DNA of 64,000 nt from Candidatus Wildermuthbacteria bacterium (lineage in GTDB: Bacteria > Patescibacteriota > Minisyncoccia > Minisyncoccales > PEYH01), in assembly GCA_037445205.1 (NCBI GenBank), contig JBBIKX010000001.1, positions 8,767-72,766 of the forward strand. The letters run 5' to 3'. This document shows positions 33,153 to 62,859 of the stretch, piece by piece (the stretch's first letter is position 1; each line of letters opens with the position of its first letter). The notes beneath the pieces are model-generated. The model did no database searches. It was not told the origin of the DNA and saw nothing but the letters and a program-made list of their open reading frames with translations. Made by a program: the position numbers and the translations under genes.

Positions 33153-34274
33153 ATGATTGCTTTTATCGTTGCTATTTTTATTTTAAGCTTCCTTATTTTT
33201 ATCCACGAACTTGGGCATTTTCTTGCCGCAAAAAAAGCCAATATTTTGGTTGAAGAGTTTGGATTTGGATACCCGCCAAGAATATTTGGAAAGAAAATCG
33301 GCGAAACGATATATTCGCTAAACATTATTCCCTTCGGGGGTTTTGTAAAAATCAGGGGAGAGAGCGGGCCCTTAGAAGACAAAAATGCGGACAAAAGGAG
33401 TTTTTTCTTGCAAAAGCCAAAAATGAAGGCAAAAATTCTTTTAGCGGGCGTTTTGGCGAACGCTTTTTTGGCGGTAGTTATTTTTTATTTTATTCTGATA
33501 AGCCAAAATTTCTCCTTTCATCTTCCGTCTTTTTATAATCATCGCTTTATTTTCGGGGAGCAGAAAAGTTTTCCCGCAGTGGCGCTGGTGCTTGATGATT
33601 CCCCCGCCCAAGAATCAGGGCTTAGGATATACGATTTGATTATTTCAGCCAATGATCAGTATATTTCAGGTGCCCGTCAATTTATTGATTTTATCAACCA
33701 AAGAAAGGGCGAGACAGTCGCGCTTCATGTTAGGAATTTAAATGATAATCTGGAAAAGACGATTATGGTGTCTTTGCCTATCAATGCGCCAGATAAAAAA
33801 GTCTTGGGGGCGGGAATTCAGGATATGATAAATATAAGATACAATTCTGGCTTAGAAAAAATCTTTTCGGGATTTTTTCATTCAATTAATATCATTGATT
33901 ATTCCTTCGCCATCTCGGGAAATTTGATTAAACAATCATTTGCTACAAAAGAGATAGCTCCTCTCGCGAATTTGGCAGTAGGTCCGGTGGGCATAATCGC
34001 TTTGACAAAAAATATTCTTAGCGGAGGGGTTTTGGCGCTTTTGAATTTCTTGGCAATTTTTTCGCTGGGCTTGGCGCTGGTAAACGTCCTGCCCATTCCG
34101 GCGGCAGACGGGGGAAGATTGGTTTTTGTAGCATATGAGGCCATATTCAAAAAAACCGCTCCGCCTAAATTTGAAAGGAATTTCAACCTTGTGGGATATA
34201 TTTTCCTTATTGTATTGTCAATTATCATCGCCGCAAAAGATATTATCCAATTTAGGGATATTTTATTTAAATAA
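33153..34274 (+). CDS. rseP: Site-2 protease RseP-like zinc metalloprotease (with PDZ)
   Basis: 373 aa; HELGHFLAAK HExxH in TM; PDZ-like middle. Confidence 0.85.
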   Translation: MIAFIVAIFILSFLIFIHELGHFLAAKKANILVEEFGFGYPPRIFGKKIGETIYSLNIIPFGGFVKIRGESGPLEDKNADKRSFFLQKPKMKAKILLAGVLANAFLAVVIFYFILISQNFSFHLPSFYNHRFIFGEQKSFPAVALVLDDSPAQESGLRIYDLIISANDQYISGARQFIDFINQRKGETVALHVRNLNDNLEKTIMVSLPINAPDKKVLGAGIQDMINIRYNSGLEKIFSGFFHSINIIDYSFAISGNLIKQSFATKEIAPLANLAVGPVGIIALTKNILSGGVLALLNFLAIFSLGLALVNVLPIPAADGGRLVFVAYEAIFKKTAPPKFERNFNLVGYIFLIVLSIIIAAKDIIQFRDILFK

Positions 34275-34286
34275 CCTTGTTTTTAT

Positions 34287-35540
34287 ATGAGGCAATCGCA
34301 ATTATTTTATAAAACAGAAAAAGTTTTGCCGGACAAAAAAGAGGCGATATCCCATGAGCTTTTAAAAAAAGCCGGCTTTATAAACCAATTGGCTTCAGGG
34401 CTTTATAGTTTATTGCCGCTGGGGTTTTTAGTCCATAAAAAAATTGAAAATATCATTCGCGAAGAAATGAAGAATATCGGCGCCCAAGAAGTATTTTTGC
34501 CCGCCCTGCAGCCAAAAGAAATTTGGGAAAAGACAAAAAGATGGAATACTATTGATCCTCCGCTCTTTAAGCTAAAAGACAGGCACCAAAAAGAATTTGC
34601 CCTTGGGTCTACGCATGAGGAAGTAATCAGCGATCTTGCGCGCCTTAAAATTAAATCTTACCGAGATTTGCCGGCGGCGCTTTTTCAGATTCAAACAAAA
34701 TTCAGAAACGAATTAAGATTTTCCGGGGGTCTTTTAAGGGCCAGAGAGTTTGTTATGAAAGATCTTTACAGCTTCCATCGAGATAAAGAAGATTTTGAGA
34801 AATATTATAAAAAGGCTATGGGCGCCTATCTTAAAATTTTTAAGCGATGCGGACTTAGGGCGGTTGTAACAGAAGCTTCGGGACAGGGATTTACAAAATC
34901 CGCTACTCACGAATTTCAGATTTTAACGCCGGCCGGCGAAGATAAAATAATTTTTTGCAAAAATTGTGCTTTTTCTCAAAATCAAGAAATCGCCCGGCAA
35001 AATGAAGGAGAAAAATGTTTAAATTGCAATAAGGGCGTTTTAGAGCTTAAGAGGGGAATAGAGGTGGGAAACATTTTTCCTTTGGAAGATAAGTATTCCA
35101 ATGATTTTGACCTTTATTTTGTTGATAAAGACAATAAAAAAAAGCCCGTTATTATGGGATGTTATGGAATCGGACTGGGAAGGTTGATGGCCGCCGCTGT
35201 TGAGATAAACTGCGATAAAAAAGGAATTGTCTGGCCAAAAGAGATAGCGCCCTACAGCGTGCATTTGCTTGCCATAGATTTAAAAGATAAAAAAGTTTTT
35301 CATCAGGCGGAAAGTTTTTATCAAAGTTTACAAGGCGCGGGTATGGGGGTATTATATGACGACAGACCGCAGACAAGCGCAGGAGAGAAATTTTTTGAAT
35401 CAGATTTGATAGGGATACCCAAAAGAATTGTTATCAGCAAAAAAACGCTGGGCGGGAATAAAATAGAATTAAAAGAGCGAAAGAGCGACAATTTGAAACT
35501 GATCAGCCGGAAACAGGCGTTAGGAGAATTAAAATTATGA
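34287..35540 (+). CDS. proS: Prolyl-tRNA synthetase (short form without editing insertion)
   Basis: 417 aa; class II aaRS motifs. Confidence 0.9.
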   Translation: MRQSQLFYKTEKVLPDKKEAISHELLKKAGFINQLASGLYSLLPLGFLVHKKIENIIREEMKNIGAQEVFLPALQPKEIWEKTKRWNTIDPPLFKLKDRHQKEFALGSTHEEVISDLARLKIKSYRDLPAALFQIQTKFRNELRFSGGLLRAREFVMKDLYSFHRDKEDFEKYYKKAMGAYLKIFKRCGLRAVVTEASGQGFTKSATHEFQILTPAGEDKIIFCKNCAFSQNQEIARQNEGEKCLNCNKGVLELKRGIEVGNIFPLEDKYSNDFDLYFVDKDNKKKPVIMGCYGIGLGRLMAAAVEINCDKKGIVWPKEIAPYSVHLLAIDLKDKKVFHQAESFYQSLQGAGMGVLYDDRPQTSAGEKFFESDLIGIPKRIVISKKTLGGNKIELKERKSDNLKLISRKQALGELKL

Positions 35541-36604
35541 TAAAAAATTTATTTTCAAACTTTGGAAAAGATATTGCCATAGATCTGGGTACGGCCAATA
35601 CGCTGGTTTATGTGAAAGGAGAGGGGATAGTAATTCGGGAACCCTCGGTTGTGGCGCTCAACCAAAAAACTGGAAAAATTTTGGCAATTGGACAAGAGGC
35701 AAAGAAAATGATCGGCCGCACGCCTTCCCATATTTTGGCAATCAAACCGCTAAGGAATGGCGTCATATCCGATTTTGAAGTGGCAGAGCAGATGTTAAGG
35801 TATTTTATTCAGAAATCATATAAAAGGAATATTGTTTTTCCAAGGCCCCGAATTATTATTGGCATTCCATGCGGGCTGACAGACGTAGAAAGAAGGGCAG
35901 TCAGAGATGCCGCAAAAAATACCGGAGCAAAAAGCGTATTCTTGGTGGAACAGCCGATGGCCAGCGCAATCGGCGCAAGGCTGCCCGTTAACGACCCCGG
36001 AGGAAATTTTGTTGTTGACATTGGGGGAGGCACTACTGAAATAGCCGTTATATCTCTTGGCGGGATAGTTCTTTCCAAGAGCTTGAAAATCGCGGGAGAT
36101 AAATTAAACGACGATATCATCAATTATGTCCAAGAAGAATATCGTCTTTTGATAGGGGAAAGAACCGCAGAGCAGATAAAAATGCATCTTGGAAGCGCTT
36201 GCCATGTAAAAGAAAAAGAAGGCGCTCCCGTAAAAAAGGAATTGCCAATGAGGGGGCGAAATCTTATTACCGGCCTTCCCGAAGAAGTAATTATTACGCA
36301 AGATGACGTGCGCAGGTCTCTTGAGAAATCAATAAAAGAGGTTGTTATGGCAGTAAAGGATACAATCGAGGCAACCCCTCCCGAGCTTGTTTCCGATATT
36401 ATGACTAAAAATATTTATCTCTCAGGAGGAGGAGCGCTTTTGAAGGGAATAGATGTTTTGATATCAAAGGAAACGAGGATTCCGACAAAAATTGTGGAAG
36501 ATCCCTTAACTGCGGTTGTGAGAGGTGCGGGCATGGTTTTGGAAAATCTTGAGATATTCAAAGATGTTTTAACCCAGCCCCAAGAAGTTCAGATTCCGCA
36601 ATAA
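35537..36604 (+). CDS. mreB: Rod shape-determining protein MreB/Mbl (paralog 2)
   Basis: 355 aa; IAIDLGTANTLVYV. Confidence 0.9.
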   Translation: MIKNLFSNFGKDIAIDLGTANTLVYVKGEGIVIREPSVVALNQKTGKILAIGQEAKKMIGRTPSHILAIKPLRNGVISDFEVAEQMLRYFIQKSYKRNIVFPRPRIIIGIPCGLTDVERRAVRDAAKNTGAKSVFLVEQPMASAIGARLPVNDPGGNFVVDIGGGTTEIAVISLGGIVLSKSLKIAGDKLNDDIINYVQEEYRLLIGERTAEQIKMHLGSACHVKEKEGAPVKKELPMRGRNLITGLPEEVIITQDDVRRSLEKSIKEVVMAVKDTIEATPPELVSDIMTKNIYLSGGGALLKGIDVLISKETRIPTKIVEDPLTAVVRGAGMVLENLEIFKDVLTQPQEVQIPQ

Positions 36605-36611
36605 TAAAAAA

Positions 36612-36899
36612 ATGATCACAGAAAAAGAAGTAATACATATTGCAGGGCTCGCGCGCATTAATCTTTCAGAAAAAGAAATTGAAAAGATGAAAAATGAACT
36701 TTCTTTGATTTTGGAATACATCAAGAAATTAAAAGAGCTTGATTTAGAAAATGTTTTGCCGACCACGCACTGCGCGGAATTAAAAAATATTACAAGAGAG
36801 GACATTTCGTCCAAAAGAGACGAGAGGGTGGCTGACTCTTTAAAAAATCTGGCTCCTCAAAAAGAGCAGAAATATATTAAAACAAAATCAGTTTTTTGA
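36612..36899 (+). CDS. gatC: Asp/Glu-tRNA amidotransferase subunit C
   Basis: 95 aa; precedes gatA. Confidence 0.85.
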   Translation: MITEKEVIHIAGLARINLSEKEIEKMKNELSLILEYIKKLKELDLENVLPTTHCAELKNITREDISSKRDERVADSLKNLAPQKEQKYIKTKSVF

Positions 36900-36900
36900 A

Positions 36901-38340
36901 ATGAATTTTTCTGACCTATCTATAAAGGAGATTCATAATGGGTTAAAAAGCAAAAAATTTTCCTGCCGGGAGTTAACCGATTTTTATTTGAGCAAAATTG
37001 AAGAGTGGAATCCGAAAATCAATGCCTATCTTTGGATTTTTTTTGATCAGGCGCGCTATCTTGCTCAAGAAATTGATGAATTAATAGCGCAGGAGAAAGA
37101 GATCCATCTTCTTTCGGGAATTCCCTGCGCGATCAAAGACAATATTGCAATAAGGGGCCAAAAAGCGAGCGCCGGCTCCAAAATACTCAAAAATTATATT
37201 GCACCCTATGATGCGTTCGTTATAGAAAAGTTGAAGTCAAAAAATAGCGTTATACTCGGGAAAACTAATTTAGATGAGTTTGCGGTGGGCTCTTCGGGAG
37301 AACATTCCGCATACGGGCCCACAAAAAATCCCTTAGACCATAAACTTGTTCCGGGCGGATCATCTTCGGGATCAGCGGCGGCAGTCAGCCAAAAAATGTG
37401 CGTTTTTTCATTGGGTTCGGACACGGGCGGATCCGTGAGGCAGCCCGCCTCATTTTGCGGAGTTGTGGGATTAAAACCAACCTATGGGGCGGTTTCTCGG
37501 CATGGATTGATAGCTATGGCTTCATCGCTGGATCAAATAGGCCCCATCGCAAAAACAGTTGAAGATGCAGAAATCGTTTTTGAGGCGATTAGAGGACAAG
37601 ACAAAATGGATTCAACCAGCTTTGAAAAAAAAGAAGAAGATTTTGAAAAGAAGCTTCAGGCAGAGAAATTTAAAATCGGAATCGTGAAAGAAGGGATGGG
37701 CGAGGGGATAGACAATGAAGTTCTTGCGTCTTTTAAAAAAACGATAGAAAATATAAGAAAAGAAGGAGTCAGCCTGGAAGAAATTAGCCTGCCCCACCTG
37801 CATTACGGACTCGCCTGTTATTATATTTTGATGACTGCGGAAGTTTCAAGCAATCTTGCAAGGTATGATGGAATAAAATATGGCCAATCAAAGAAAGACG
37901 CAAAAAATCTTTTAGATATTTATTTTGAAACAAGGAAAGAGTTTTTTGGACCGGAGGTGAAGCGAAGAATAATGCTTGGGACTTACTGTCTGTCATCGGG
38001 CTATTACGAGTCTTATTATTTAAAAGCCCAAAGAACAAGGACAAAAATAGTAGAGGATTTCAAAAGCGCATTCAAAAAAGTGGATTTGCTGTTAATGCCC
38101 ACCTCCTCCACTCTTCCATTCAGATTGGGCGAGAGGATAGACAATCCTTTGTCAATGTATCTTGCAGATTTGTTAACCGTTCCTGTTAATCTTTCAGGGC
38201 TTCCCGCCATTTCCATCCCTTTCAAGGACAAAAAGAAATTTCCGATAGGCATTCAGCTTATTGCTCCGGCCTTTGGAGAAAAAAAGATATTTGAATTTGG
38301 AAAATTTTTTGAGAAAATATGTCAATCCAAAACAACATAA
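36901..38340 (+). CDS. gatA: Asp/Glu-tRNA amidotransferase subunit A
   Basis: 479 aa; amidase signature GGSSGGSAAAV. Confidence 0.93.
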   Translation: MNFSDLSIKEIHNGLKSKKFSCRELTDFYLSKIEEWNPKINAYLWIFFDQARYLAQEIDELIAQEKEIHLLSGIPCAIKDNIAIRGQKASAGSKILKNYIAPYDAFVIEKLKSKNSVILGKTNLDEFAVGSSGEHSAYGPTKNPLDHKLVPGGSSSGSAAAVSQKMCVFSLGSDTGGSVRQPASFCGVVGLKPTYGAVSRHGLIAMASSLDQIGPIAKTVEDAEIVFEAIRGQDKMDSTSFEKKEEDFEKKLQAEKFKIGIVKEGMGEGIDNEVLASFKKTIENIRKEGVSLEEISLPHLHYGLACYYILMTAEVSSNLARYDGIKYGQSKKDAKNLLDIYFETRKEFFGPEVKRRIMLGTYCLSSGYYESYYLKAQRTRTKIVEDFKSAFKKVDLLLMPTSSTLPFRLGERIDNPLSMYLADLLTVPVNLSGLPAISIPFKDKKKFPIGIQLIAPAFGEKKIFEFGKFFEKICQSKTT

Positions 38341-38945
38341 TCAATATTCCCAATTACGATTTTGAGGGGTTATTTTCTTATCTTTTAAGGATTGTTCAGG
38401 GATTTAAAATTCCCTTCATTGTTGTTTCTTTAATATTGCTTGCCGGAATTGTATATTTTATGGTTTTTACGGATTATCTTTATTACAAATACTTTGAGCA
38501 ATGGGAGGAATATACCAAATGGAAAGCGATGCATAAAATTCCCCGCAGAAAAAAAAGGAAAATCATCCAAAAGGAAAATCCGCTCTCCATGGCGCCGTCC
38601 CTGCCCGCAGAAGAGTCAATCATAAAAGAATCAAAACCGCCGGGGGAGTGGGAAAGGATTTTTGAAAAGCTTAAAAGCCAAAAAGGCATTGATTATAAAT
38701 TGGCGCTTGTTGACGCAGACAGATTGCTTGCCAAAAAATTAGAAGAAGCGGGAATCGCGGGAAGGAATTTAGATCAGCAAATAGAAAATGTTCCTCCGGA
38801 TTTTAAAATGGATTTGTCCCAGATTAAAAAGGCGCGAAATCTTTTAAAAGAGGTATTTTTGGAAGAAAAAAAGAAGACTGCGAAAAGCTCTGTTAAAGAG
38901 GCAATTGAGGTGTATAAAAATGCGTTTGACGCAGTAAAAATTTGA
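38319..38945 (+). CDS. Hypothetical membrane-anchored protein
   Basis: 208 aa; one TM; overlaps gatA end by 22 nt. Confidence 0.6.
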   Translation: MSIQNNIINIPNYDFEGLFSYLLRIVQGFKIPFIVVSLILLAGIVYFMVFTDYLYYKYFEQWEEYTKWKAMHKIPRRKKRKIIQKENPLSMAPSLPAEESIIKESKPPGEWERIFEKLKSQKGIDYKLALVDADRLLAKKLEEAGIAGRNLDQQIENVPPDFKMDLSQIKKARNLLKEVFLEEKKKTAKSSVKEAIEVYKNAFDAVKI

Positions 38946-38976
38946 TTTTTTCTAAAAATCAATATATAAATACGAT

Positions 38977-39050
38977 AGCGGGGTGGACCAGTAGTAGGTC
39001 GCGGGTCTCATAAGCCCGAAGCGTTGGTGCAATTCCAGCCCCCGCTACCA
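38977..39050 (+). tRNA. tRNA-Met (anticodon CAT; could be initiator, elongator or Ile2-lysidine type) with encoded CCA
   Basis: Hand-folded cloverleaf: acceptor AGCGGGG/CCCCGCT, anticodon loop CTCATAA, ends ACCA. Confidence 0.85.
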
Positions 39051-39084
39051 GTTTAAAAATAAAAAATTTTAATTTTTCTCTGTG

Positions 39085-39156
39085 GCCGGTGTAGCTCAGT
39101 GGCAGAGCAAACGTTTCATAAGCGTTGGGTCGTTGGTTCAATTCCAACCACCGGCA
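39085..39156 (+). tRNA. tRNA-Met (anticodon CAT), second copy/isoacceptor, no encoded CCA
   Basis: Acceptor GCCGGTG/CACCGGC, anticodon loop TTCATAA, T-loop TTCAATT. Confidence 0.85.
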
Positions 39157-39175
39157 AAAATTGAGAATATATTAT

Positions 39176-39250
39176 GGACCCATGGTGTAGCCCGGTTAAC
39201 ACATCTCCCTGTCACGGAGAAGATCAGGGGTTCAAATCCCCTTGGGTCCG
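39176..39250 (+). tRNA. tRNA-Asp (anticodon GTC)
   Basis: Acceptor GGACCCA/TGGGTCC, anticodon loop CTGTCAC, T-arm AGGGG-TTCAAAT-CCCCT. Confidence 0.9.
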
Positions 39251-39253
39251 CAA
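39235..39253 (+). repeat. Direct repeat copy 1 (AATCCCCTTGGGTCCGCAA) = 3' end of tRNA-Asp; putative attL
   Basis: Identical 19-mer recurs at 40465-40483. Confidence 0.7.
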
Positions 39254-39305
39254 TACGAGATTTGTCAAAGATTCTGTTTCGCAATCAACGCGGAAGTGAC
39301 AATTT

Positions 39306-40373
39306 ATGAAAATTTCTGATTTAAATTTTAGTAATTTCAATAGACAAATTAAATTTTCAATGAAAGCAATACTAAGCGATTTTAAATATTTCTATTTATC
39401 GATTTTTTTCTTTGGAATTCTTTTGTTTTTCATTCCTGAAATTTGTAGCGCTAATTTCCTTATAGGAGGATTTTTTATGTATAGTTTCTCTTTGTTGGCG
39501 CCCGTTATTTTCACGGGCGTTTGGGCCATAGAAGCCTTAACTATCAAGAATAAATTAGGGGGGACGCCACAAAAAGCACTATTTACTGCTTTAGTGGTAA
39601 ATTTGGCCACCAGCCTATCGGGCTTTGTTTTGGTTAAAAAAAACTTCTTGGCGGAATACACCCTATATAACGAATCTCTTACATTAATGATTTTTTTCCT
39701 TCTATCTGTTTTTGTTGAAATGTTAATGTTGCATTTTTGCTATAGAGAAGAATCTTGGCATAAAGTAATTATTGCTAGCTTTTTAATGAATCTGAAATCT
39801 TACTTTTTTTTAGCGTTTTTCTTGATAGGAGATTTTACAATCATAGGCGGGGCTATTATTTTAGTTATTGTCGTCCCCTATTTTTTCACAAAAGCTTTTA
39901 GGATGTTAGCCCCGGACAGAGAGTTTTTAAAATTTTTTAAAATAAGATCAGGCATCTTAATTCATTTCCTTTCCATTGTTCTAATCGGTTTGGTGTTTAT
40001 AGGAACCATAAAGGCGATAGATAAAGCGTTTCTTAAGCAAAGAAGAGAGGTGATAAAAGAGCATGAGGTAATGTCTAACATGCTTCAGATAAGCTCCAAG
40101 GCAGAATTGATCTATGCATACAAAGGAAGTTATGAATCATTAAATTGCGACTATGACGAAGAAATAAAAAGTGCTTGCAAGAATATTGAAAAGAAGACAG
40201 GCGCCAGGCTCACTATTCATACATCTGAAAACAGATATTGCGCCTATATTAAATTAATTTATTCTGAAAAATGGTATTGCGCAGATAATATTTCTGGACT
40301 TATCCCTGGGAAAATTAATATTAATCCCTCTATTTTGGGGTATTGTGATGGTAAGACTTTTATTTGTCCATAA
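39306..40373 (+). CDS. Polytopic membrane protein with Cys-rich C-terminal extracytoplasmic domain (island 1 cargo)
   Basis: 355 aa; 6-8 TM then a about 100-aa domain with 8 Cys. Confidence 0.7.
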   Translation: MKISDLNFSNFNRQIKFSMKAILSDFKYFYLSIFFFGILLFFIPEICSANFLIGGFFMYSFSLLAPVIFTGVWAIEALTIKNKLGGTPQKALFTALVVNLATSLSGFVLVKKNFLAEYTLYNESLTLMIFFLLSVFVEMLMLHFCYREESWHKVIIASFLMNLKSYFFLAFFLIGDFTIIGGAIILVIVVPYFFTKAFRMLAPDREFLKFFKIRSGILIHFLSIVLIGLVFIGTIKAIDKAFLKQRREVIKEHEVMSNMLQISSKAELIYAYKGSYESLNCDYDEEIKSACKNIEKKTGARLTIHTSENRYCAYIKLIYSEKWYCADNISGLIPGKININPSILGYCDGKTFICP

Positions 40374-40464
40374 ATATTAGCTTATTTGTAAGAATTAGAT
40401 GTGTTGTCCACAATTTTTTAGAGTAAAAATAATTGATTAATTTTTCCATCGGTATCAGATTATT

Positions 40465-40483
40465 AATCCCCTTGGGTCCGCAA
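40465..40483 (+). repeat. Direct repeat copy 2 of tRNA-Asp 3' end; putative attR of island 1 / attL of island 2
   Basis: Perfect 19-nt match to 39235-39253; the GC-rich block starts immediately after. Confidence 0.7.
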
Positions 40484-40503
40484 CGATACAAATTTCTTAC
40501 CTT

Positions 40504-40531
40504 AAAGCCGCGCTCCAGCGTGGCTTTTTTT
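40504..40531 (+). terminator. Intrinsic terminator (AAAGCC GCGCT..AGCGT GGCTTT plus T7)
   Basis: GC-rich hairpin and TTTTTTT directly after the repeat. Confidence 0.55.
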
Positions 40532-40589
40532 GGTTGAAATTTTTTTTGATTCTGATAGATTGAAAAAATAACCAAAAGGAGGTGAGACA

Positions 40590-41588
40590 GTGTCTTGCGA
40601 TACAGCCGTTATCGTGAATGTGCAGGCGGGCGCGGGAATGACTCGCTGGAAGTTGGCGCATCTTATGCGCCAGTTAAACCGCATTCTTTCTGTGCCCAAG
40701 AGTTGTGTCTGGCTGACTCGGGAAACCGGCGAGAGCAGCGCCACATCCCTGGCATCTTTTGCCCAAAGCAGAGGGGCCAAAGCAGTGATTGTCTTTGGCG
40801 GAGACGGCACGGTTCATCAGGCAGTAAACGGCCTGAAACTGCCCGATCCTTCAATCTCTGTTGGCATTGTGCCCTGCGGTACGGCCAACGTGGTTGCTTC
40901 CTGCCTTGGAATGCCAAGAAATGTCAAAGCGGCGCTGGAAGTCATAAGGGCCGGAATGACAAGAAAGATCGATCTGGGAATCCTGGAGGGAGATGGCCTT
41001 CCAAGATACGCGGTTTCCACGCTAAGCGTGGGACTTGACGCGATGATAAACGAACTGGCGCATCGTGTTAAGCCCCTGTTTCGGAAATACCATCTGCCAT
41101 CCATCTTGGGCTACATTCCGCCTCTTCTTAGATACACTCTTAATGAAGTTCCGCTCTACGATGTAGCTGTCAAAAAGGATGGATTGGTTTTTTGCGAAAG
41201 GATATCCTTTCTGGCAGTAACAAACACTCCATGGTATGGAGGCGGATTGGTGGACAGAACTGCCAAGCTTGACGACGGGCTGTTTAACATGATATGCGCC
41301 AGAAAGATCAGGTCCCGCGATCTTCCCTGGTGGATGTTTCAGATGTGGCAGGGAAATCACATCTATTATCCCAAGGTTTTTCTGCCCTGCTCTTCGTTTT
41401 CAGGATTAAGCATAAGTTCTGACTTTCCCTTGCCCGCGCAGATTGACGGACAGATTCTGCCCGCCCGGAAGAACATCGCAATCTCTGTCGTTCCCCGCCT
41501 CCTGCAGGTTTTCGCACCTTTGCCCCAACCAGAAAGAACAAAGCATTCTGGTTGGGGTTGTTTTTTTGATATGTCCAGGTTCAGATAG
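40590..41588 (+). CDS. Lipid kinase of the YegS/BmrU/DgkB family (diacylglycerol-kinase catalytic domain)
   Basis: 332 aa, GTG start 8 nt after AGGAGGTG; VIVFGGDGTVHQAVNGL (GGDG) and VTNTPWYGGGL; about 57% GC. Confidence 0.8.
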   Translation: MSCDTAVIVNVQAGAGMTRWKLAHLMRQLNRILSVPKSCVWLTRETGESSATSLASFAQSRGAKAVIVFGGDGTVHQAVNGLKLPDPSISVGIVPCGTANVVASCLGMPRNVKAALEVIRAGMTRKIDLGILEGDGLPRYAVSTLSVGLDAMINELAHRVKPLFRKYHLPSILGYIPPLLRYTLNEVPLYDVAVKKDGLVFCERISFLAVTNTPWYGGGLVDRTAKLDDGLFNMICARKIRSRDLPWWMFQMWQGNHIYYPKVFLPCSSFSGLSISSDFPLPAQIDGQILPARKNIAISVVPRLLQVFAPLPQPERTKHSGWGCFFDMSRFR

Positions 41589-41647
41589 ATATTGACCAAA
41601 ATATTCTTTTATGATATAATTTGGATATCCTAAGGAGGTGATGCGTG

Positions 41648-41815
41648 ATGAAGGCGGGTATAGTGATTTTCCGGCATACACAAGTAGAAACGCTGCAGGC
41701 GACGGTTAACGCGTTTCTCAAGGTTCACGCTCCACATATGGAGAACCTTGAGCATCAGCTGGTAGTGACTCCAGACGGCACTATCGTCTTGACCCTGCTT
41801 TATCGGGCTAAGTAG
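41648..41815 (+). CDS. Small GC-rich hypothetical protein (55 aa)
   Basis: Manual translation MKAGIVIFRHTQVETLQATVNAFLKVHAPHMENLEHQLVVTPDGTIVLTLLYRAK; TAAGGAGGTG SD 6 nt upstream; below ORF-track cutoff. Confidence 0.5.
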   Translation: MKAGIVIFRHTQVETLQATVNAFLKVHAPHMENLEHQLVVTPDGTIVLTLLYRAK

Positions 41816-41837
41816 GGTTCGTAAGGAGGGAGGAACG

Positions 41838-42101
41838 ATGCGTAAGCTCTTTGCGGCGATTGTCGGACTCTACCGTCGGCTCTGGATGATTGAGCCCCGC
41901 CGTTTCAAACGGGGACAAATCATCCAGTTCGAAGACTGGCGCGATGGCATTAGAGTTGCCAAAGCCAGATACCTGGTTCTCGGCAATACACCCTCCGAGA
42001 AGAGGTACGTCCTGGAGGGTGTTGGGCCCGGCAACAAGGGGAGGCGCGAGCGCCTTCGCTTCCGCTGGGTTGACAAACACGCACATTTGGTGCGCGGCTG
42101 A
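41838..42101 (+). CDS. GC-rich hypothetical basic protein (87 aa)
   Basis: GTAAGGAGGGAGG SD; no known domain. Confidence 0.55.
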   Translation: MRKLFAAIVGLYRRLWMIEPRRFKRGQIIQFEDWRDGIRVAKARYLVLGNTPSEKRYVLEGVGPGNKGRRERLRFRWVDKHAHLVRG

Positions 42102-42111
42102 AATGCCTGTT

Positions 42112-42155
42112 CCGCCCGGGACTAAGGAGGAGTTCCGGGCGGTTGTTGTTTTTTG
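42112..42155 (+). terminator. Intrinsic terminator (CCGCCCGG/CCGGGCGG plus TTGTTGTTTTTTG)
   Basis: 8-bp GC stem, long loop, U-tract after the 87-aa ORF. Confidence 0.6.
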
Positions 42156-42204
42156 ATGAAGTTTCTGGTATCGTATCAAGTATCGCACATTGGGAGGTGG
42201 AACG

Positions 42205-42348
42205 GTGCACAAATGGGTAATCTTTGCGGTAGTGGTGATCCCAAGCATTCTCATCGGTTCCCTTATCTGCCTTTTCCAAGGAAAGGGCAGAAGAGTGTGG
42301 TCCTTCGCTAAGGGGAGAGTCTTTGCTTGGGCGGAAACGGATTGGTGA
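42205..42348 (+). CDS. Tiny hydrophobic membrane peptide (47 aa), GTG start
   Basis: VHKWVIFAVVVIPSILIGSLICLFQGKGRRVWSFAKGRVFAWAETDW; GGGAGGTGG SD 5 nt upstream; hairpin AACCGGC...GCCGGTT downstream. Confidence 0.4.
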   Translation: MHKWVIFAVVVIPSILIGSLICLFQGKGRRVWSFAKGRVFAWAETDW

Positions 42349-42352
42349 ACAC

Positions 42353-42369
42353 AATCCTCTTGGCACTTG
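42353..42369 (+). repeat. Degenerate third copy of the tRNA-Asp 3' repeat (AATCCTCTTGGCACTTG, 11/17 match) at the right edge of the GC-rich island
   Basis: Aligned by eye to AATCCCCTTGGGTCCGC; sits where GC-rich DNA reverts to AT-rich. Confidence 0.3.
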
Positions 42370-42439
42370 TTAACCGGCGCATCTTCTGATGGGCCGGTTC
42401 ATCTTTTAACAAAAAATGCTCCATTTTTTGATTTGATTT

Positions 42440-43519
42440 TTGTTTGTTTTTGAATTAGAATTAATATATAAAATGGATTTAAAAAGCATTAAAAAGAAAG
42501 CAAAAAAGGAGATTGAATCGGCAAAAGATTCTGTTGCGCTAAAGCATATTTTTCAAGATTTTTTCGGCAAAAAGGGCGAGATTGCCGTCATTTTAAGCTC
42601 TCTTAAAAATCTTCCCCAAAAAGAAAGAAAGGACAAGGGAAAAATTATAAATGAAGTAAAAAAAGAGGTTCTGGAAATGATTGCAAAAAAAGAAAATAAT
42701 TTGAAAAAAATTGAGGCGGCTTTGGACGCAAAAGAGGAGTGGATTGATATAAGCTTTCCCTCAAAAAAAATTCCTCTGGGACATCTTCACCCCCTTACCC
42801 AAGCCAGAAGAAAAACAGAGGAAATTTTTGAAAAACTTGGATTTTCTGTGATTGAAGGACCCCAGATAGAAACAGAGTGGTATAATTTTGACGCCCTAAA
42901 CATTCCCAAAGATCATCCCGCGCGGGACAGGTGGGACACTTTTTGGCTCAGGGAGTCAGAAAGTCAAAAGTCAAAGGTCAAAAGTCAAAGGTTATTGTTA
43001 AGAACCCACACAAGTCCGGTTCAAATCCGCTATATGGAAAAAAACAATCCTCCCTTGCGGATTATTGTTCCAGGCAGAATATTCAGATACGAGGCGACAG
43101 ACGCTTCTCATGAAATAAACTTTTACCAGCTGGAAGGATTAATGGTTGATTCAAAAGTAACCCTTGCCGACTTTAAAGGAGTGATGGAAAAATTTTTCCA
43201 GATGTTTTTTGGCGATGAGGCCAAGATCCGGCTAAGGCCCAGCTATTTTCCCTTTACCGAACCGAGCGTTGAAATTGATATTAGCTGCCGGATATGCAAA
43301 CAAGAGGGATGCAGCGCTTGCGGCCGGAAGGGCTGGGTTGAAATAGCGGGCGCAGGCATGGTTCACCCAAATGTTTTTAAAGCAGCCAACCTTAACCCTA
43401 AAAATTGGCAGGGATTTGCGTTTGGAATAGGTCTTGATAGGTTGGCTATGATGAAATACAGGATTAATGATATAAGATTGTTCTATGGGGGAGATCTGCG
43501 GTTTCTTGAGCAATTTTAA
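42440..43519 (+). CDS. pheS: Phenylalanyl-tRNA synthetase alpha subunit
   Basis: 359 aa; class II motifs; internal ESQKSKVKSQ insert encoded by a short tandem repeat. Confidence 0.93.
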   Translation: MFVFELELIYKMDLKSIKKKAKKEIESAKDSVALKHIFQDFFGKKGEIAVILSSLKNLPQKERKDKGKIINEVKKEVLEMIAKKENNLKKIEAALDAKEEWIDISFPSKKIPLGHLHPLTQARRKTEEIFEKLGFSVIEGPQIETEWYNFDALNIPKDHPARDRWDTFWLRESESQKSKVKSQRLLLRTHTSPVQIRYMEKNNPPLRIIVPGRIFRYEATDASHEINFYQLEGLMVDSKVTLADFKGVMEKFFQMFFGDEAKIRLRPSYFPFTEPSVEIDISCRICKQEGCSACGRKGWVEIAGAGMVHPNVFKAANLNPKNWQGFAFGIGLDRLAMMKYRINDIRLFYGGDLRFLEQF

Positions 43520-43528
43520 TTTAACATA

Positions 43529-45595
43529 ATGATATTTTCGTATAACTGGATACAGTCATTTTTTACTGAAAAACTGCCCAAGCCTCAAGCATTGGCAGAG
43601 CTTTTGGAGCTTCACAGCTTTGAAGTAAAAGAGACAAAAAAAATCGGGAGAGATTTTTCGCTTGATATAGATATAATGCCGAACAGGCCCGACTGTTTTT
43701 CTCATTTGGGCATTGCAAGAGAATGTTCTGCCATTCTTGGATTAAAAACCAAGAATAATCAGCCAAAAATAGTTTCAGAATTTTCGTTTAAAAATCTCAA
43801 AAAGAAATCTAATCTGATTTCCGTGGAAATTAAAGATCAAAACGATTGTTTTAGATATACGGGGGCGTTTGTCGGGGGCATTAGTGTTGGTTTTTCTCCG
43901 AAATGGATGCAGCAAAGACTTTCCGTTTGCAATATTCAGCCGATTAACGGCATAGTTGATGTGGCGAACTACACAATGCTTGAAACGGGCCAGCCCATAC
44001 ATATTTTTGATTATGATAAAATCGCGGGCAAAAAAATTGTCGTAAGACGCGCCCGAAAAAACGAGAAAATTTCCGCTCTTGATGGGAAAGAATATAGCCT
44101 CGATCAGGATATTTTGGTAATTTCCGATGAAAAACAACCTTTGGCGATAGCGGGAATTAAAGGCGGAAATATCGCAGCAATTGACGAAAAAACAAAAAAC
44201 ATCTTTATTGAATCCGCGACTTTTGACCCTTTGGTTATAAGAAAGGCGTCTTATAAGCTGAAATTGAAAACAGATGCTTCTTTGAGATTTGAGCACGGGC
44301 TTGATTACAATATGACGGAATCGGCGATCAATAAAGCGATATCTTTTGTAAAAAAAACTTCGTCCAAGGATGCTAAAATTTTCAAAATAGATATTTTTGA
44401 GAAGTGTCCGCCCAAAAAAATTATAAAACTTGATTTTAACTTTGCAGAAAAACTCTTGGGCGTAAAAATTTCTCCAAAAAATACAGAGAACATATTAAAA
44501 ACGCTTGGAATAAAAGTTTTTAAAAAAACGAACAGCACTTTTGATTTAGAGATTCCCTTTGAAAGGGGCGATCTCTGCCTGCCCTCCGACATCGCGGAAG
44601 AAATTATAAGAATTTACGGATTAGAAAGAATAAAACCCACTTTGCCCCTTGGAGTTTTAGTCCCTCCCCAAAAAAACGACGAACTTTTTTGGGAAAACCA
44701 GGTTAAAAATTCTTTGAAAGAAATGAATTTCTTTGAAATTTACAATTATTCTTTCATCAAAAAAAACGATGGAAAAAATTATTTTTCTCTTGTTGAGCTT
44801 GAAAATCCGGCAAGCGAACAATTCCAATATCTCAGGCCAACGCTTTTAACGGGGCTTATAGAAAATTTAAAAATCAACACTCCAAATTACAAGGAAATAA
44901 AAATTTTTGAGCTGGAAAAAGTTTTCCAAAAATCAATCAGCGGAGAAATTTTTGAAAAGAAAATGTTGTCTGGCCTGATTTGGGAAAAAGGGGCAAAAAA
45001 GGGGAGATTGGAAAACGAATTCGCCCATATCAAGGGAATTTTAGACACGCTTTTGAATAATTTGGGGATAAGCGATTATTATTTTAACGAATACAAACCA
45101 AATCCTTCGGAGATGAAATTATCATTTTGGGATAAAAACCGCGTAGCAGAAATTTCTCTTATGAGCGGGAAAAAAATTGGATTTCTGGGAGCGATTTCTT
45201 TGGATATTCTTGGGGGCTATAAAATTGAGGAACCGGTTATGGCTTTTGACATAGATTTTGAAAAGCTTTGGACGGAGTGCAGCGAAGAGTGCGAATATCG
45301 TCCTGCCTCAAATTATCCCTGCGCTATACGCGATATTGCGGTTTTAGTTCCAAGAGAAACAAAAATAGGCGAGGTTTTAAATGCAATACAGAAAGCCGGC
45401 GGAGAAAAGATAAGAGATGTGGATTTGTTTGATTTCTACGAGGGGTCTCAAATTCCCCAAGGAAAGAAGAATCTTGCATTCCATATCATATTTCAATCAG
45501 ACGATAAAACATTAAGCGGCAAGGAAGTTGATTCATTGCATAAAAAAATAATCGGTTTTCTTGAGAAAAAAGAAGGATGGGCGGTGAGAAAATAA
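43529..45595 (+). CDS. pheT: Phenylalanyl-tRNA synthetase beta subunit (compact)
   Basis: 688 aa; B3/B4 and B5 domains; follows pheS. Confidence 0.93.
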   Translation: MIFSYNWIQSFFTEKLPKPQALAELLELHSFEVKETKKIGRDFSLDIDIMPNRPDCFSHLGIARECSAILGLKTKNNQPKIVSEFSFKNLKKKSNLISVEIKDQNDCFRYTGAFVGGISVGFSPKWMQQRLSVCNIQPINGIVDVANYTMLETGQPIHIFDYDKIAGKKIVVRRARKNEKISALDGKEYSLDQDILVISDEKQPLAIAGIKGGNIAAIDEKTKNIFIESATFDPLVIRKASYKLKLKTDASLRFEHGLDYNMTESAINKAISFVKKTSSKDAKIFKIDIFEKCPPKKIIKLDFNFAEKLLGVKISPKNTENILKTLGIKVFKKTNSTFDLEIPFERGDLCLPSDIAEEIIRIYGLERIKPTLPLGVLVPPQKNDELFWENQVKNSLKEMNFFEIYNYSFIKKNDGKNYFSLVELENPASEQFQYLRPTLLTGLIENLKINTPNYKEIKIFELEKVFQKSISGEIFEKKMLSGLIWEKGAKKGRLENEFAHIKGILDTLLNNLGISDYYFNEYKPNPSEMKLSFWDKNRVAEISLMSGKKIGFLGAISLDILGGYKIEEPVMAFDIDFEKLWTECSEECEYRPASNYPCAIRDIAVLVPRETKIGEVLNAIQKAGGEKIRDVDLFDFYEGSQIPQGKKNLAFHIIFQSDDKTLSGKEVDSLHKKIIGFLEKKEGWAVRK

Positions 45596-45631
45596 CTTCA
45601 AAATTAAGTTTTGATAATAAAAATATAATAT

Positions 45632-47557
45632 ATGACAAAAAAAGATAAGGCCTCGGAGGGTTATAGTGCAAAAGATATTTTTGTATTGAAAGGATTGGAG
45701 CCGGTGCGCAAAAGACCGGCGATGTATATTGGCTCAACGGGGCCAGACGGGCTTCATCATCTAATTTGGGAATGTTTGGACAATGCCATTGATGAGGCGA
45801 TGGGAGGATACGCTACAGAAATTGAAGTGGTTTTATTGCCCAAAAACCGGGTAAAGGTTACTGACAACGGCCGCGGGATTCCTGTTGATATTCATCCCCA
45901 GACCAAAAAATCTGCCCTTGAAACGGTGATGACGACCCTTCATGCAGGCGCAAAATTTGACAGGAAAGTATACCAAATTTCAGGGGGACTGCATGGAGTC
46001 GGAGTTTCTGTCGTATGCGCTCTTTCTTCCTGGATGAGGGTTGAAGTATGCCGTCAGGGACATCGCCATTCCCAAGAATACGAGAAAGGCAAGCCCCAGA
46101 CGAAAGTGAAAAAAGAAGGAACTTGCAGACAATCCGGCACCGCTGTAATTTTTGATGCCGACCCGGAAATTTTTTCTCAAATCAAATATGACAGAAAAAG
46201 GGTCATTTCTCATTTGAGGAGACAGGCATATCTTACAAAAGGCGTGAGAATAAAATTCAAGGATTTGCGCGAAGGAGAATTTGAATACACTTTTTATTTT
46301 GAAGGCGGGCTCCGTTCCTACATAAAGTTTTTAATCGGCAACAATACTCCTCTTCATCAGGGCGTTTTTTACGTCCAAAAGGAAAAGGACGGAATTATTT
46401 CAGAGGCCGTATTCCAGTATACGCAGGAAAGAGAGGGCTGGGAGGAGGGTTTCGCGAATAACATTTATACAGTTGAGGGAGGTAGCCATTTAACCGGCTT
46501 TCGCTCCGCCTTAACGCGCAGCCTGAATGATTACGCCAAAAAGAATAACTACATAAAACCAGAAGAAGATGGTTTTTCCGGCCAAGACGTGAGAGAGGGT
46601 TTGAACGCGGCTGTTTCCGTGAAAATTAAAGAACCGCAGTTTGAGGGCCAGACAAAAACAAAACTTGGAAATCCCGAGGCAAAATCGGCGGTAGAGTCAG
46701 TTGTGGGAGAGGTGCTCAGCGATTTTTTGGAGAGAAATCCCCAAGATGCCCGGTTAATTGTGGAAAATTGTCTTTTAGCCGCAAAAGCGCGTCAGGCGGC
46801 AAGGGCGGCGCGCCAGACAATCCTTCGCAAGGGTATTTTAGATGGATTGAGCCTTCCCGGAAAACTGGCCGATTGCATTATGCGCAATCCGAGCCAAGCA
46901 GAGCTTTTTATCGTAGAGGGAGAGAGCGCGGGCGGCTCTGCAAAAATGGGAAGAGATAGGAAATTTCAGGCGATCCTCCCCCTTAGGGGAAAAATTTTAA
47001 ATGTTGAAAGGGCGAGGCTTGATAAAATTTTGTCATCTGAAGAAATCAAAGCGCTTGTAATTGCATTAGGCACTGCCATTTCTCAGGATTTTGAAATAGA
47101 CAAGATAAGGTATCATAGGATTATCATTATGACCGATGCGGATGTAGATGGCGCTCATATAAGAACTCTTCTTTTAACGCTTTTTTACAGATATTTTAAG
47201 CCGGTGATAGATATGGGATATCTTTATATCGCCCAGCCTCCGCTTTATAAAATCCAATCGGGAAAGATTGTAAAATATGCCTACACAGAGGGTCAGAAAG
47301 AAAAATTCATAAAAGAGATCCAGAAAGGAGAAGTGAAAAATATTAATATACAAAGGTATAAAGGTTTGGGAGAAATGAACCCCGATCAGCTCTGGGAAAC
47401 GACAATGAATCCTTCCCAGAGAATGTTAATGCGGGTAGCAATTGAAGAGGCCAAAGAAGCCGATAAGATATTTGATATTCTGATGGGCAAGGAGGTTTTT
47501 CCAAGAAAAAAATTCATTCAGGCGCACGCCAAAAGCGTCAAAAACTTAGATATTTAA
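45632..47557 (+). CDS. gyrB: DNA gyrase subunit B
   Basis: 641 aa; GHKL ATPase, TOPRIM EGDSAGG, PLRGKILNVE. Confidence 0.95.
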   Translation: MTKKDKASEGYSAKDIFVLKGLEPVRKRPAMYIGSTGPDGLHHLIWECLDNAIDEAMGGYATEIEVVLLPKNRVKVTDNGRGIPVDIHPQTKKSALETVMTTLHAGAKFDRKVYQISGGLHGVGVSVVCALSSWMRVEVCRQGHRHSQEYEKGKPQTKVKKEGTCRQSGTAVIFDADPEIFSQIKYDRKRVISHLRRQAYLTKGVRIKFKDLREGEFEYTFYFEGGLRSYIKFLIGNNTPLHQGVFYVQKEKDGIISEAVFQYTQEREGWEEGFANNIYTVEGGSHLTGFRSALTRSLNDYAKKNNYIKPEEDGFSGQDVREGLNAAVSVKIKEPQFEGQTKTKLGNPEAKSAVESVVGEVLSDFLERNPQDARLIVENCLLAAKARQAARAARQTILRKGILDGLSLPGKLADCIMRNPSQAELFIVEGESAGGSAKMGRDRKFQAILPLRGKILNVERARLDKILSSEEIKALVIALGTAISQDFEIDKIRYHRIIIMTDADVDGAHIRTLLLTLFYRYFKPVIDMGYLYIAQPPLYKIQSGKIVKYAYTEGQKEKFIKEIQKGEVKNINIQRYKGLGEMNPDQLWETTMNPSQRMLMRVAIEEAKEADKIFDILMGKEVFPRKKFIQAHAKSVKNLDI

Positions 47558-56389: not shown

Positions 56390-56683
56390 ATGTCGTATTA
56401 TTTAGCAATAATGTTTATGTTGCTAAGCGCAGGCTTTGCAAGTGCGGGGTTTAGGGTGATCCGTTATGCCCTTCGAGGAAAGCTGACAGGCACTATGCTT
56501 GATAGAGGCATGATACTCGGTACTGTCATCGTGCTTGTTGGAGTGGGGCTCGCCACGATTCCCATCATCTTCCAGAGCGGGATAAGATGGTGGTGTCTTG
56601 CGCTGGCGCTTGTGGAGGCAGTGGTCTGTATTGGGCTCTGGATGCTGCATGTCTTCTCGTCTGCGTCAATGGATTCACCCTAA
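56390..56683 (+). CDS. GC-rich small membrane protein (3 TM), cassette B
   Basis: 97 aa; strong SD; about 50% GC; opposite orientation between miaB and miaA. Confidence 0.6.
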   Translation: MSYYLAIMFMLLSAGFASAGFRVIRYALRGKLTGTMLDRGMILGTVIVLVGVGLATIPIIFQSGIRWWCLALALVEAVVCIGLWMLHVFSSASMDSP

Positions 56684-61983: not shown

Positions 61984-62859
61984 TTATGCTGGTTTATAGA
62001 CACGGTTTACCAGCACTTGGCGGGCAAACGTCACCCTCCATGTCGGGCCTACGAATCCGACTTCCCGGAGCAGTTGTTCCCATTGCGGAATTGCGAGGAA
62101 GGTGTATGTTCCTTCTTTTCCCTTTCTTTGTATTTCAAGGGCGTGACGAAGTATGCTTGTGCCCTGAAGAATTCGGCTAAAATCCCGATTTCTTATGTAG
62201 GGCAGAGGATTGAGCATGTCAGGAAGAGAAGCGACAAACACCCATTGGAAGTGAACGTTTTGTCTGGGAGTAGACCAGACGATATGTCCTCCGGGCTTGA
62301 GCACCCTATGCATCTCTCTGAAAACTTCCCTCATGGCCCTTATGCCTTTTTCGCTTCGAAAGTCAGTTGCATAGGGGATAACTAAATTTGCGATAATTCC
62401 ATCAAAGTGGTTATCGTCGAAGGGAAGTTCTTCGCCAAGATGAGCGAAAACAAGATGCATGGGCAACGTGGGGTGAAGAGATTGCGTTTTCCGCGCCGGA
62501 TCAAGAACTATATCCAGACCAACTACCAATTTGATAGTTCTGCCGGATTTGTTCCATGCCAAGAGAGCCATCTTGGCGGGTCCGCAGCCTACATCCAGCC
62601 AAACTTCGTTAGCTTTGGGCTGGATTAATCCGGCGACTGTCGTTGTAAGGTTGTGGTAGGGTCTTGCCTTTTCCAGGTTTTTGTAAATCCTTGCGTAATC
62701 CCTCCAAAACGCCAACTCTTGTCCCCAAGAGCGGATCCTTCCTCTTGTGAAGGGCGAAAGCCCGTTCTCATTTGCTTCCAGCCACTCTTCTATGCTCTCC
62801 GTGCTTAATCCTTCTCCAAAGCACGGCCCAAGGATCTCTGATATGCTTTTGGTTTTCAT
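61984..62859 (-). CDS. GC-rich class I SAM-dependent methyltransferase (small-molecule/UbiE-like rather than DNA MTase)
   Basis: 291 aa; LDVGCGPAKMA motif I; no (D/N)PP(Y/F); own TTGACA-17-TATAAA promoter and AAGGAGGTAAGGA SD upstream. Confidence 0.8.
   Translation of the reverse strand: MKTKSISEILGPCFGEGLSTESIEEWLEANENGLSPFTRGRIRSWGQELAFWRDYARIYKNLEKARPYHNLTTTVAGLIQPKANEVWLDVGCGPAKMALLAWNKSGRTIKLVVGLDIVLDPARKTQSLHPTLPMHLVFAHLGEELPFDDNHFDGIIANLVIPYATDFRSEKGIRAMREVFREMHRVLKPGGHIVWSTPRQNVHFQWVFVASLPDMLNPLPYIRNRDFSRILQGTSILRHALEIQRKGKEGTYTFLAIPQWEQLLREVGFVGPTWRVTFARQVLVNRVYKPA

Follow-up and report, generated by a model that had tools for sequence, protein, structure and literature searches.

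A 64-kb stretch of DNA from a Parcubacteria/Nealsonbacteria-like bacterium of the Candidate Phyla Radiation (CPR), referred to here as the window, carries a 1,211-bp insert directly behind an intact tRNA-Asp gene. This insert, which we call element A (39254-40464, + strand; all positions follow the numbering of the window), is bounded on either side by a perfect 19-bp copy of the tRNA-Asp 3' end, encodes a single membrane protein (gene A), and is missing from the same locus in the related contigs L082, L083 and L084. We consider it probable that element A is a 1.2-kb single-gene cassette without a recombinase, the most likely route of entry being site-specific recombination into the 3' end of tRNA-Asp. 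An earlier note on this DNA had proposed two tandem elements at the locus, an AT-rich one with a Cys-rich membrane protein and a GC-rich one with a lipid kinase. The first is borne out as a tRNA 3'-end insertion by the perfect repeat, the intact tRNA and the precise absence in relatives; the second is not. Throughout, L001 to L098 denote comparison contigs or assemblies from other genomes or samples.

The tRNA-Asp repeat and element A

The insertion target, tRNA-Asp(GTC), is located on the + strand at 39176-39251 according to ARAGORN and at 39176-39250 according to the Rfam tRNA model (67.9 bits). The 19-mer AATCCCCTTGGGTCCGCAA that forms its 3' end occurs exactly twice in the window, both times on the + strand and with 19/19 identity. 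Copy 1, the attL-like core, is at 39235-39253, and copy 2, the attR-like core, is at 40465-40483. Allowing up to three mismatches still returned just these two matches, compared to 0.03 expected from shuffled sequence, and the exact recurrence described in the earlier note is therefore far above chance. Of the T-loop (TTCAAAT) the repeat takes in the last three bases; it then runs through the 3' strand of the T-stem, the 3' strand of the acceptor stem and the discriminator, and includes two to three bases of flank. Its boundaries are sharp: over the 59 nucleotides (nt) beyond the repeat, identity between the two copies is 15/59 upstream and 18/59 downstream, which corresponds to the random level. 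The 19-mer had no match among viral contigs.

To reconstruct the site before insertion, the tRNA-Asp of the window was joined to the sequence that follows copy 2 (...GATCAGGGGTTCAAATCCCCTTGGGTCCGCAA|CGATACAAATTTCTTACC) and this virtual empty site was aligned with L082-L084 (alignment A3). The two are co-linear through the tRNA, a hairpin with T-run, a TTGAAA...TA(A/G)ATT promoter, a Shine-Dalgarno sequence and the start of a kinase gene. The perfect repeat and the co-linear empty relatives together indicate that the insertion was precise and lineage-specific, and that it left tRNA-Asp intact. The hairpin and T-run at 40504-40532 (+ strand) are the counterpart of the terminator found directly after tRNA-Asp in the relatives, displaced by 1.23 kb, and the stretch from the stop codon of gene A to repeat copy 2 has no terminator. 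The insertion has thus parted the tRNA cluster from its own terminator, with gene A now lying between them. The corresponding virtual circle junction of element A reads ...CATCGGTATCAGATTATT|AATCCCCTTGGGTCCGCAA|TACGAGATTTGTCAAAG, and no second copy of the element is present in the window. An independent assembly from Logan, L001, spans 33773-46585 and agrees with the window at 12,812 of 12,813 positions, so the arrangement is no assembly accident.

Gene A (39306-40373, + strand) is the sole open reading frame (ORF) of element A. Its start is uncertain and may be at 39306, 39360 or 39477, and the GC content of the ORF (~0.32) is similar to that of the host (0.39). The ORF encodes a polytopic membrane protein of 355 amino acids (aa), the version on record (P0121) has 298 aa, and exact look-ups of either found no encoding contig. 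The C-terminal domain is conserved, rich in Cys (six residues, alignment A2) and probably extracytoplasmic. The C-terminus gives a tentative impression of a type IV pilin. We found no match to gene A in Pfam, PHROG or NCBIfam; the AlphaFold model has a mean predicted local distance difference test score of 60, and neither Foldseek against the PDB nor phmmer of the C-terminal domain against PDB sequences returned anything meaningful. There was no sign of a link to phages or plasmids: searches of phages with the gene A protein, of plasmids with the whole region and of viral contigs with the kinase gave no hits. Rfam detected the three tRNAs of the region, the remainder being sub-threshold noise.

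The tRNA-Asp/pheS slot and the GC-rich block

The host gene order tRNA-Met/tRNA-Met/tRNA-Asp/pheS/pheT is conserved. In the window the two tRNA-Met(CAT) genes are at 38977-39050 and 39085-39156 (+ strand; ARAGORN and Rfam), and pheS, the right-hand anchor of a variable slot, is at 42473-43519 (+ strand; Pfam and synteny). The relatives of its PheS are metagenome-assembled genomes of the Parcubacteria/Nealsonbacteria type with at most 66% identity. The tRNA cluster lies 5' of pheS on the same strand in 38 of 80 relatives, a few of which have a single tRNA-Met, and the distance from tRNA-Asp to pheS in these 38 ranges from 86 bp to 5.4 kb. The slot is essentially empty (86-213 bp) in 10 of them. 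The expectation that unoccupied relatives would have pheS right after tRNA-Asp is correct for these genomes; in the nearest relatives, however, the order is tRNA-Asp, kinase, pheS. The 59 ORFs found in the gaps of the relatives include 11 phosphoribosyltransferases, 10 orotidine monophosphate decarboxylases and four dihydroorotate dehydrogenases (pyr genes), and much of the variable slot content is non-mobile DNA. Two of the gap ORFs, both in distant relatives, are XerC/D-like tyrosine recombinases (L018:138-1007 and L031:4916-5752). Each comes right after tRNA-Asp, on the opposite strand, with pyrF-pyrE-pheS behind it, and no flanking repeats were detected around either.

Additional copies of the tRNA-Asp 3' end, all significant, were found in three relatives: a 22-nt repeat in two copies (L049:2615-2680), a 12-13-nt repeat in three copies (L063:1595-1722), and a 78-nt repeat in two copies with a 35-nt spacer (L067:6863-7053). 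The 3' half of the L067 tRNA is the same as that of the window, and its repeat starts 2 nt away from the start of the window repeat. The spacers of the three arrays are 29-58 nt long and geneless. The recurrence of such copies indicates that recombination has repeatedly used the tRNA-Asp 3' end in this clade, and the tRNA-Asp/pheS gap is a variable slot and a recombination hot spot.

The GC-rich DNA next to the locus is real: in 200-nt windows its GC content is ~0.47-0.585 between 40.5 and 42.4 kb, compared to ~0.3-0.4 in the surroundings. The block consists of three self-contained units, all on the + strand. The first is a lipid-kinase module (40534-41567; Pfam, NCBIfam and promoter scan) with a promoter-like site at 40534-40561, a DAGK_cat+YegS_C lipid kinase at 40590-41588 (Pfam, NCBIfam), and a terminator hairpin followed by a T-run at 41523-41558. 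The second, at 41592-42152, is a strain-variable pair of ORFs of 56 aa (41645-41815) and 87 aa (41838-42101), preceded by a promoter-like site (41592-41620) and followed by a terminator (42112-42142). The third encodes a 52-aa transmembrane peptide (42190-42348; probable start GTG 42205; 'HKW...LFQGKGRR'). Its terminator hairpin and T-run at 42372-42407 (hairpin 42372-42399) mark the true end of the block, and the pheS upstream region conserved in relatives begins at ~42420. The small peptide has positional homologues in L082 and L083. L084 lacks the peptide unit, and there the conserved region upstream of pheS comes right behind the terminator of the kinase. No homologue of the 87-aa protein was found among 5.8 billion sequences, making it an ORFan. 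In the sister sample SRR11582140, contig L086 is 96.1% identical at the nt level over 40526-41632 and diverges right after GGATATCCTA (41632), just past the promoter-like site, which indicates that the 56-aa/87-aa module varies between strains.

The earlier note had read this block as a second tandem island. Across 40484-42407 we found neither a pair of att repeats nor lineage-specific presence. The closest kinases on long contigs, those of L082, L083 and L084 (53-55% aa identity; the L083 contig begins inside the tRNA), occupy the same tRNA-Asp/pheS slot without flanking repeats. The same intervening genes thus occur in relatives without repeats, a result that the note itself had named as counting against an island. 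Divergence of the kinase also tracks that of the host proteins. Between the window and L082, identity is 54.5% for the kinase, 61.7% for PheS, 48.2% for PheT, 69.0% for GatA and 86.1% for GyrB; between L082 and L083 it is 77.2% for the kinase, 84.2% for PheS, 79.7% for PheT and 94.5% for GyrB; and between L082 and L084 it is 60.6% for the kinase, 77.2% for PheS and 83.6% for GatA. The shared slot and this host-congruent divergence argue for vertical inheritance and rule out a recent acquisition of the block. The simplest reading is that the kinase descends from an ancestor that already had it in the slot. An ancient horizontal origin is possible, and has left no att scar. In L082, L083 and L084, too, the kinase has a raised GC content, to varying extents: it is 0.50, 0.45 and 0.39, respectively, compared to 0.33-0.38 for the hosts, and the GC content at third codon positions (GC3) is 0.49, 0.41 and 0.29, compared to 0.35, 0.28 and 0.25 for pheS. 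Distant kinases (33% identity) lie just upstream of pheS in L074 and L025.

The boundaries of the kinase module are common to L085 (75.7% nt identity over window 40529-41567) and L086. In L085 (positions 1-1544) a 72%-identical kinase module, complete from promoter to terminator, is found elsewhere, with 374 nt of GC-rich sequence upstream that has no tRNA or Rfam match. This suggests that the kinase unit can relocate as a module. Two further ORFs of elevated GC content in the window may be other foreign genes, namely a 97-aa membrane-like protein without a Pfam match (56390-56683, GC 0.51) and a 291-aa S-adenosylmethionine-dependent methyltransferase (61984-62859, GC 0.49).

Recombinase-linked cassettes in related genomes

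The window was searched for recombinases with phmmer, using the XerC/D-like proteins of L018 and L031 and the serine recombinase of L087 as queries against all six-frame ORFs. The statement of the earlier note that no integrase is present was borne out over the 64 kb, and the gene map of the window, all of it housekeeping, likewise contains no recombinase. Homologues of gene A provide a link to one. Seven are detectable, and a scan of JGI metagenomes gave nine more loci; the closest, in L087 (ENA) and L092 (JGI), share 64-65% aa and 76% nt identity with the window gene. Gene A homologues lie directly 3' of tRNA genes in four of the eight informative contexts: tRNA-Asp in the window, tRNA-Asp in L087/L092, tRNA-Val in L088/L089/L094/L095, and tRNA-Ala in L098. 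The first ~67 nt of the gene A frame (39306-39372) are 88% identical to L092 and lie 5' of the start of most homologues. Their counterpart in L092 is part of an inverted repeat, and the segment may be a conserved non-coding site and not coding sequence.

In L087 and L092, which are two independent assemblies and represent another Parcubacterium, a 517-aa protein with Resolvase, Recombinase and Zn_ribbon_recom domains is encoded on the opposite strand, directly abutting the 3' end of tRNA-Asp, and is followed by gene A. Among PHROGs it matches the integrase family PHROG 95 (3.7e-74), and in NCBIfam it comes closest to CcrA, CcrB and XisF, all below cut-off. Beside tRNA-Asp in these contigs (L092:1-5365 and L087:1-3134) are three consecutive single-gene segments, containing the serine recombinase, gene A and a 609-aa DUF2330/lectin-like gene. 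Each has long inverted repeats (63+20 nt, 201 nt at 97% and 116 nt at 100%), and the junctions are copies of a composite site, made up of a right block a, the tRNA 3' end t and a left block s, in alternating orientation. The alternating pattern is probably real, as it is present in both assemblies, and the arrangement could be an inversion or shuffling system.

Gene A cassettes without a recombinase are present directly after tRNA-Val (L094:5890-7170; also L088, L089 and L095). Another (L098:52-2307) has a tRNA-Ala(TGC) gene on either side and lies upstream of 23S rRNA; the L098 locus also contains a 5'-half tRNA fragment. A right-end block is common to L092, L094 and L098. It comprises a GC hairpin, AAAATCAAGATTTTCG, TCAAAATAGGTTCGAC, ~15 nt and CCCRCCA, and its last 5-8 nt match exactly the extreme 3' end of the tRNA beside it. 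The left block 's', directly after the tRNA, is common to L092 and L098. A 16-mer of the right-end block gave 25 matches among viral contigs, all of them in unrelated coding sequence. In L008 a solo 's' follows tRNA-Asp at an otherwise empty tRNA-Asp/pheS site (7804-7890; nhmmer 2.6e-11), where it gives the tRNA an encoded CCA; the sister genome L012 (7840-7875) has no 's'. The solo copy may be the footprint of a lost cassette.

Judged from these contexts, the cargo of element A falls into a group of cassettes that are associated with tRNA genes and have a link to a large serine recombinase; for the window element itself, membership of that group is only suggested. The left arm of element A (39254-39294, + strand) has a weak likeness to the 's' block of the relatives: 22 of 33 positions are identical counting from the tRNA end, with p ~0.003 for L092 and 0.04 for L098, both uncorrected for the 8 tests made. 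Tentatively, these loci may represent an undescribed family of Parcubacteria (CPR), in which single-cargo cassettes of 1.2-3 kb at the extreme 3' ends of tRNA-Asp, tRNA-Val and tRNA-Ala genes would be moved by a CcrB-like recombinase. The features of such a family would be a T-arm/acceptor-like right block (AAAATCAAGATTTTCG-TCAAAATAGGTTCGAC-N15-CCCRCCA), the left block 's', and the recombinase in some members.

Mode of entry, rival explanations and known systems

The sequence of events that we favor would begin with an ancestor whose slot already held the GC-rich lipid-kinase operon, since inherited vertically. Later, DNA in a small circular or some other mobilised form, with one cargo gene, would have entered by site-specific recombination, its attachment site corresponding to the last ~17 nt of tRNA-Asp and 2-3 nt of flank. 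The crossover would have taken place somewhere in the 19-bp identity that starts mid-T-loop; this would have regenerated an intact tRNA (copy 1), while copy 2, which is the original 3' end of the tRNA, would have been pushed 1.23 kb downstream together with the terminator of the tRNA operon. As the recombinase is missing from both the element and the window, element A appears to be decayed or non-autonomous, and would move solely via a recombinase acting in trans. That recombinase would most likely be a CcrB/DsiB-like large serine recombinase, since the closest cargo homologue travels with one at tRNA-Asp, and a tyrosine integrase is possible. What we infer here is the circular form of the intermediate, the class to which the recombinase belongs and any mobility today.

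Several observations weigh against this account. Neither element A nor the rest of the window contains a recombinase, an excisionase or a transfer gene, so integration is something we infer and did not see. The empty sites come from distant relatives (PheS ~62% identity), with none from the same species. Similarity to L092 at the nt level is confined to the ORF plus 11 and 9 nt on its two sides (window 39295-40382). An nhmmer profile of the 's' block fails to reach the window, and the right arm of element A has no similarity to the right-end block of the recombinase family. The L092 repeat consists of 8 nt of the extreme tRNA 3' end and 46 nt of flank at 91% identity, a geometry unlike the 19-bp, mid-T-loop repeat of the window. 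Large serine recombinases usually need a 2-bp crossover, and 19 bp of perfect identity suits a tyrosine integrase equally well.

The rival closest to the earlier note is that of two tandem islands: an ancestor would have received the kinase block, too, via the tRNA-Asp att site, and a degenerate third repeat would be its decayed attR. The block is indeed compositionally foreign (GC 0.52-0.55 vs 0.39, GC3 0.55 vs 0.41), the slot is a recombination hot spot, and the discrete boundaries of the kinase module are shared with L085 in another context. The alleged third copy, AATCCTCTTGGCACTTG, does lie at 42353-42369 (+ strand), and its first 11 nt match the repeat at 10 positions, a level reached by one other site on either strand of the window besides the exact copies. 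Over its full length, however, it matches the tRNA 3' end at 11 of 17 positions, which is the background level: at least 11 of 17 matches are found at 23 sites on the + strand, a figure that includes the two exact copies, and at 35 on the - strand, with three within the island. The score of the local alignment between the tRNA and the island end was reached by 29 of 500 shuffles for a 173-nt region and by 82 of 500 for a 370-nt region, so that with the choice of length counted the match is at chance (p ~0.06-0.16). Nor is it at the edge of the GC-rich DNA, where the earlier note had placed it. It is situated between the stop codon of the small ORF (42346-42348) and the terminator hairpin at 42372-42399; being 5' of the last terminator, it is ~40-50 nt inside the block and not at the host junction. 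The block ends of L082-L084 contain no tRNA-like remnant. We rejected the third repeat as attR, since it matches at chance level, is wrongly placed and has no counterpart in relatives, and it gives no att support. As the kinase is also syntenic and host-congruent in relatives, and its 33% homologues in L074 and L025 are linked to pheS, we regard two tandem islands as unlikely.

For element A itself, homologous or homology-facilitated illegitimate recombination on tRNA sequence, a Campbell-type event via the 19-bp identity with a donor carrying gene A at tRNA-Asp, would account for a window without a recombinase, and the weak likeness of the left arm to the sequence after tRNA-Asp in the L092/L008 lineage would fit carry-over from the donor. 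We consider it rather improbable: 19 bp is very short for a RecA-dependent crossover, the donor-type tRNA-Asp 3' end (..CACCCCCGCCA) is unlike that of the window and both copies are of the window type, tRNA-Asp 3'-end repeats recur elsewhere, and the closest cargo relative has a serine recombinase. Copy 2 might also be the remnant of a duplicated and decayed second tRNA-Asp gene, and the gene A-like cargo of L098 does lie between two complete tRNA-Ala(TGC) genes. Decay would not, however, spare a perfect 19-mer beside random sequence, and here 19/19 identity falls to 15/59 just upstream of copy 2, where alignment with the 5' part of the tRNA gives p ~0.77; a decayed duplicate is very unlikely. 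A direct repeat around a single-gene insert would also be expected from the target-site duplication of a transposon or from an assembly chimera, and we give this the least credence of all. The termini of element A have no inverted repeats (best inverted match 6 nt, p 0.97), there is no transposase, and 19 bp is atypical for a target-site duplication, and a DNA transposon was rejected on these grounds. The near-identical independent assembly and the resumption of syntenic host genes on both sides speak against a chimera. Site-specific recombination at the tRNA-Asp 3' end thus remains the reading that we prefer.

In classical tRNA islands an identity block over the 3' part of the tRNA, typically of the 19-bp type, regenerates the tRNA and a repeat marks the far end; the integrase is normally beside attL, and sizes range from kilobases to more than 100 kb. 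Islands and prophages that integrate into tRNA genes with tyrosine integrases reportedly fall into sublocation classes, a scheme said to go back to Williams in 2002. Element A shares the repeat and the regenerated tRNA with classical tRNA islands and differs by having no integrase. A second comparison is offered by the staphylococcal cassette chromosome mec (SCCmec) and ccr-less pseudo-SCC elements at rlmH/orfX, which are large-serine-recombinase cassettes flanked by 15-20-bp direct repeats that copy the 3' terminus of a conserved gene. SCCmec elements stack in tandem, have recombinase-less members, measure 20-60 kb, are found in Staphylococcus and usually need both CcrA and CcrB. Element A differs from them in its tRNA target, which is not a protein-coding gene, in its size (1.2 kb vs 20-60 kb) and in its CPR host.

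The ssrA islands of Dehalococcoides, for which a comparison with CcrB has been drawn (PMC3146451), have direct repeats of ~20 bp of the RNA gene 3' end that begin mid-T-loop (McMurdie et al. 2011, PMC3146451). They form tandem arrays downstream of the target in a highly variable region. The integrase gene, which lies beside attL on the reverse strand, encodes a CcrB-like large serine recombinase, and 15 of the islands lack the integration module and are read as cis-mobilizable (PMC3146451). The 19-bp repeat of the target 3' end, its mid-T-loop start and the missing integrase of the window are all like these islands; the recombinase on the reverse strand next to the tRNA is matched by L092/L087 and not by the window. 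Unlike the ssrA islands, element A has tRNA-Asp and not transfer-messenger RNA as its target, is 1.2 kb long with one gene, and resides in a CPR host with no recombinase in the window. The L092 recombinase is also below the NCBIfam CcrA/B cut-offs, and no DsiA-, ParB- or RecF-like module genes were seen. Element A can further be compared with cis-mobilizable elements (CIMEs), which keep attL and attR, have lost integration and transfer genes, and accrete into tandem arrays (Pavlovic et al. 2004; PMC5704250). In Firmicutes, CIMEs are decay products derived from integrative and conjugative elements (ICEs) or integrative and mobilizable elements and are mobilised by a neighbouring ICE (PMC5704250). 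Element A likewise retains attL/attR-like repeats of the target 3' end, lacks integration and transfer genes, and sits at an accretion-prone locus. A cargo relative that has a recombinase exists in L087/L092, the homology being the ORF plus the weak left-arm match. Unlike CIMEs, element A has no known conjugative or mobilisation partner, and the likeness rests on its att-like ends and gene content.

The finding in the window is itself ordinary biology, an att scar without an integrase, of a known kind in an under-studied phylum. For the calling of islands it carries a caution, as a GC-rich block with an apparent degenerate repeat beside a tRNA proved to be an old, vertically inherited resident. 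Mobile elements have been little charted in CPR/Patescibacteria, as has the way in which these tiny genomes acquire surface and membrane genes. The locus described here resolves one such gene gain at a tRNA 3' end to the base pair, with a cargo tied to serine-recombinase-associated cassettes at several tRNAs. The recombinase-linked cassettes of L092/L087, with their conserved ends and sites in alternating orientation, are a more novel lead than the window element. If the cassette family is real, this recombinase might also invert or shuffle cassettes, its sites alternating in orientation around single genes. Element A would then count as a member that has diverged and lacks the recombinase, with the tRNA-Asp/pheS slot as a cassette acceptor comparable to an SCC or integron platform.

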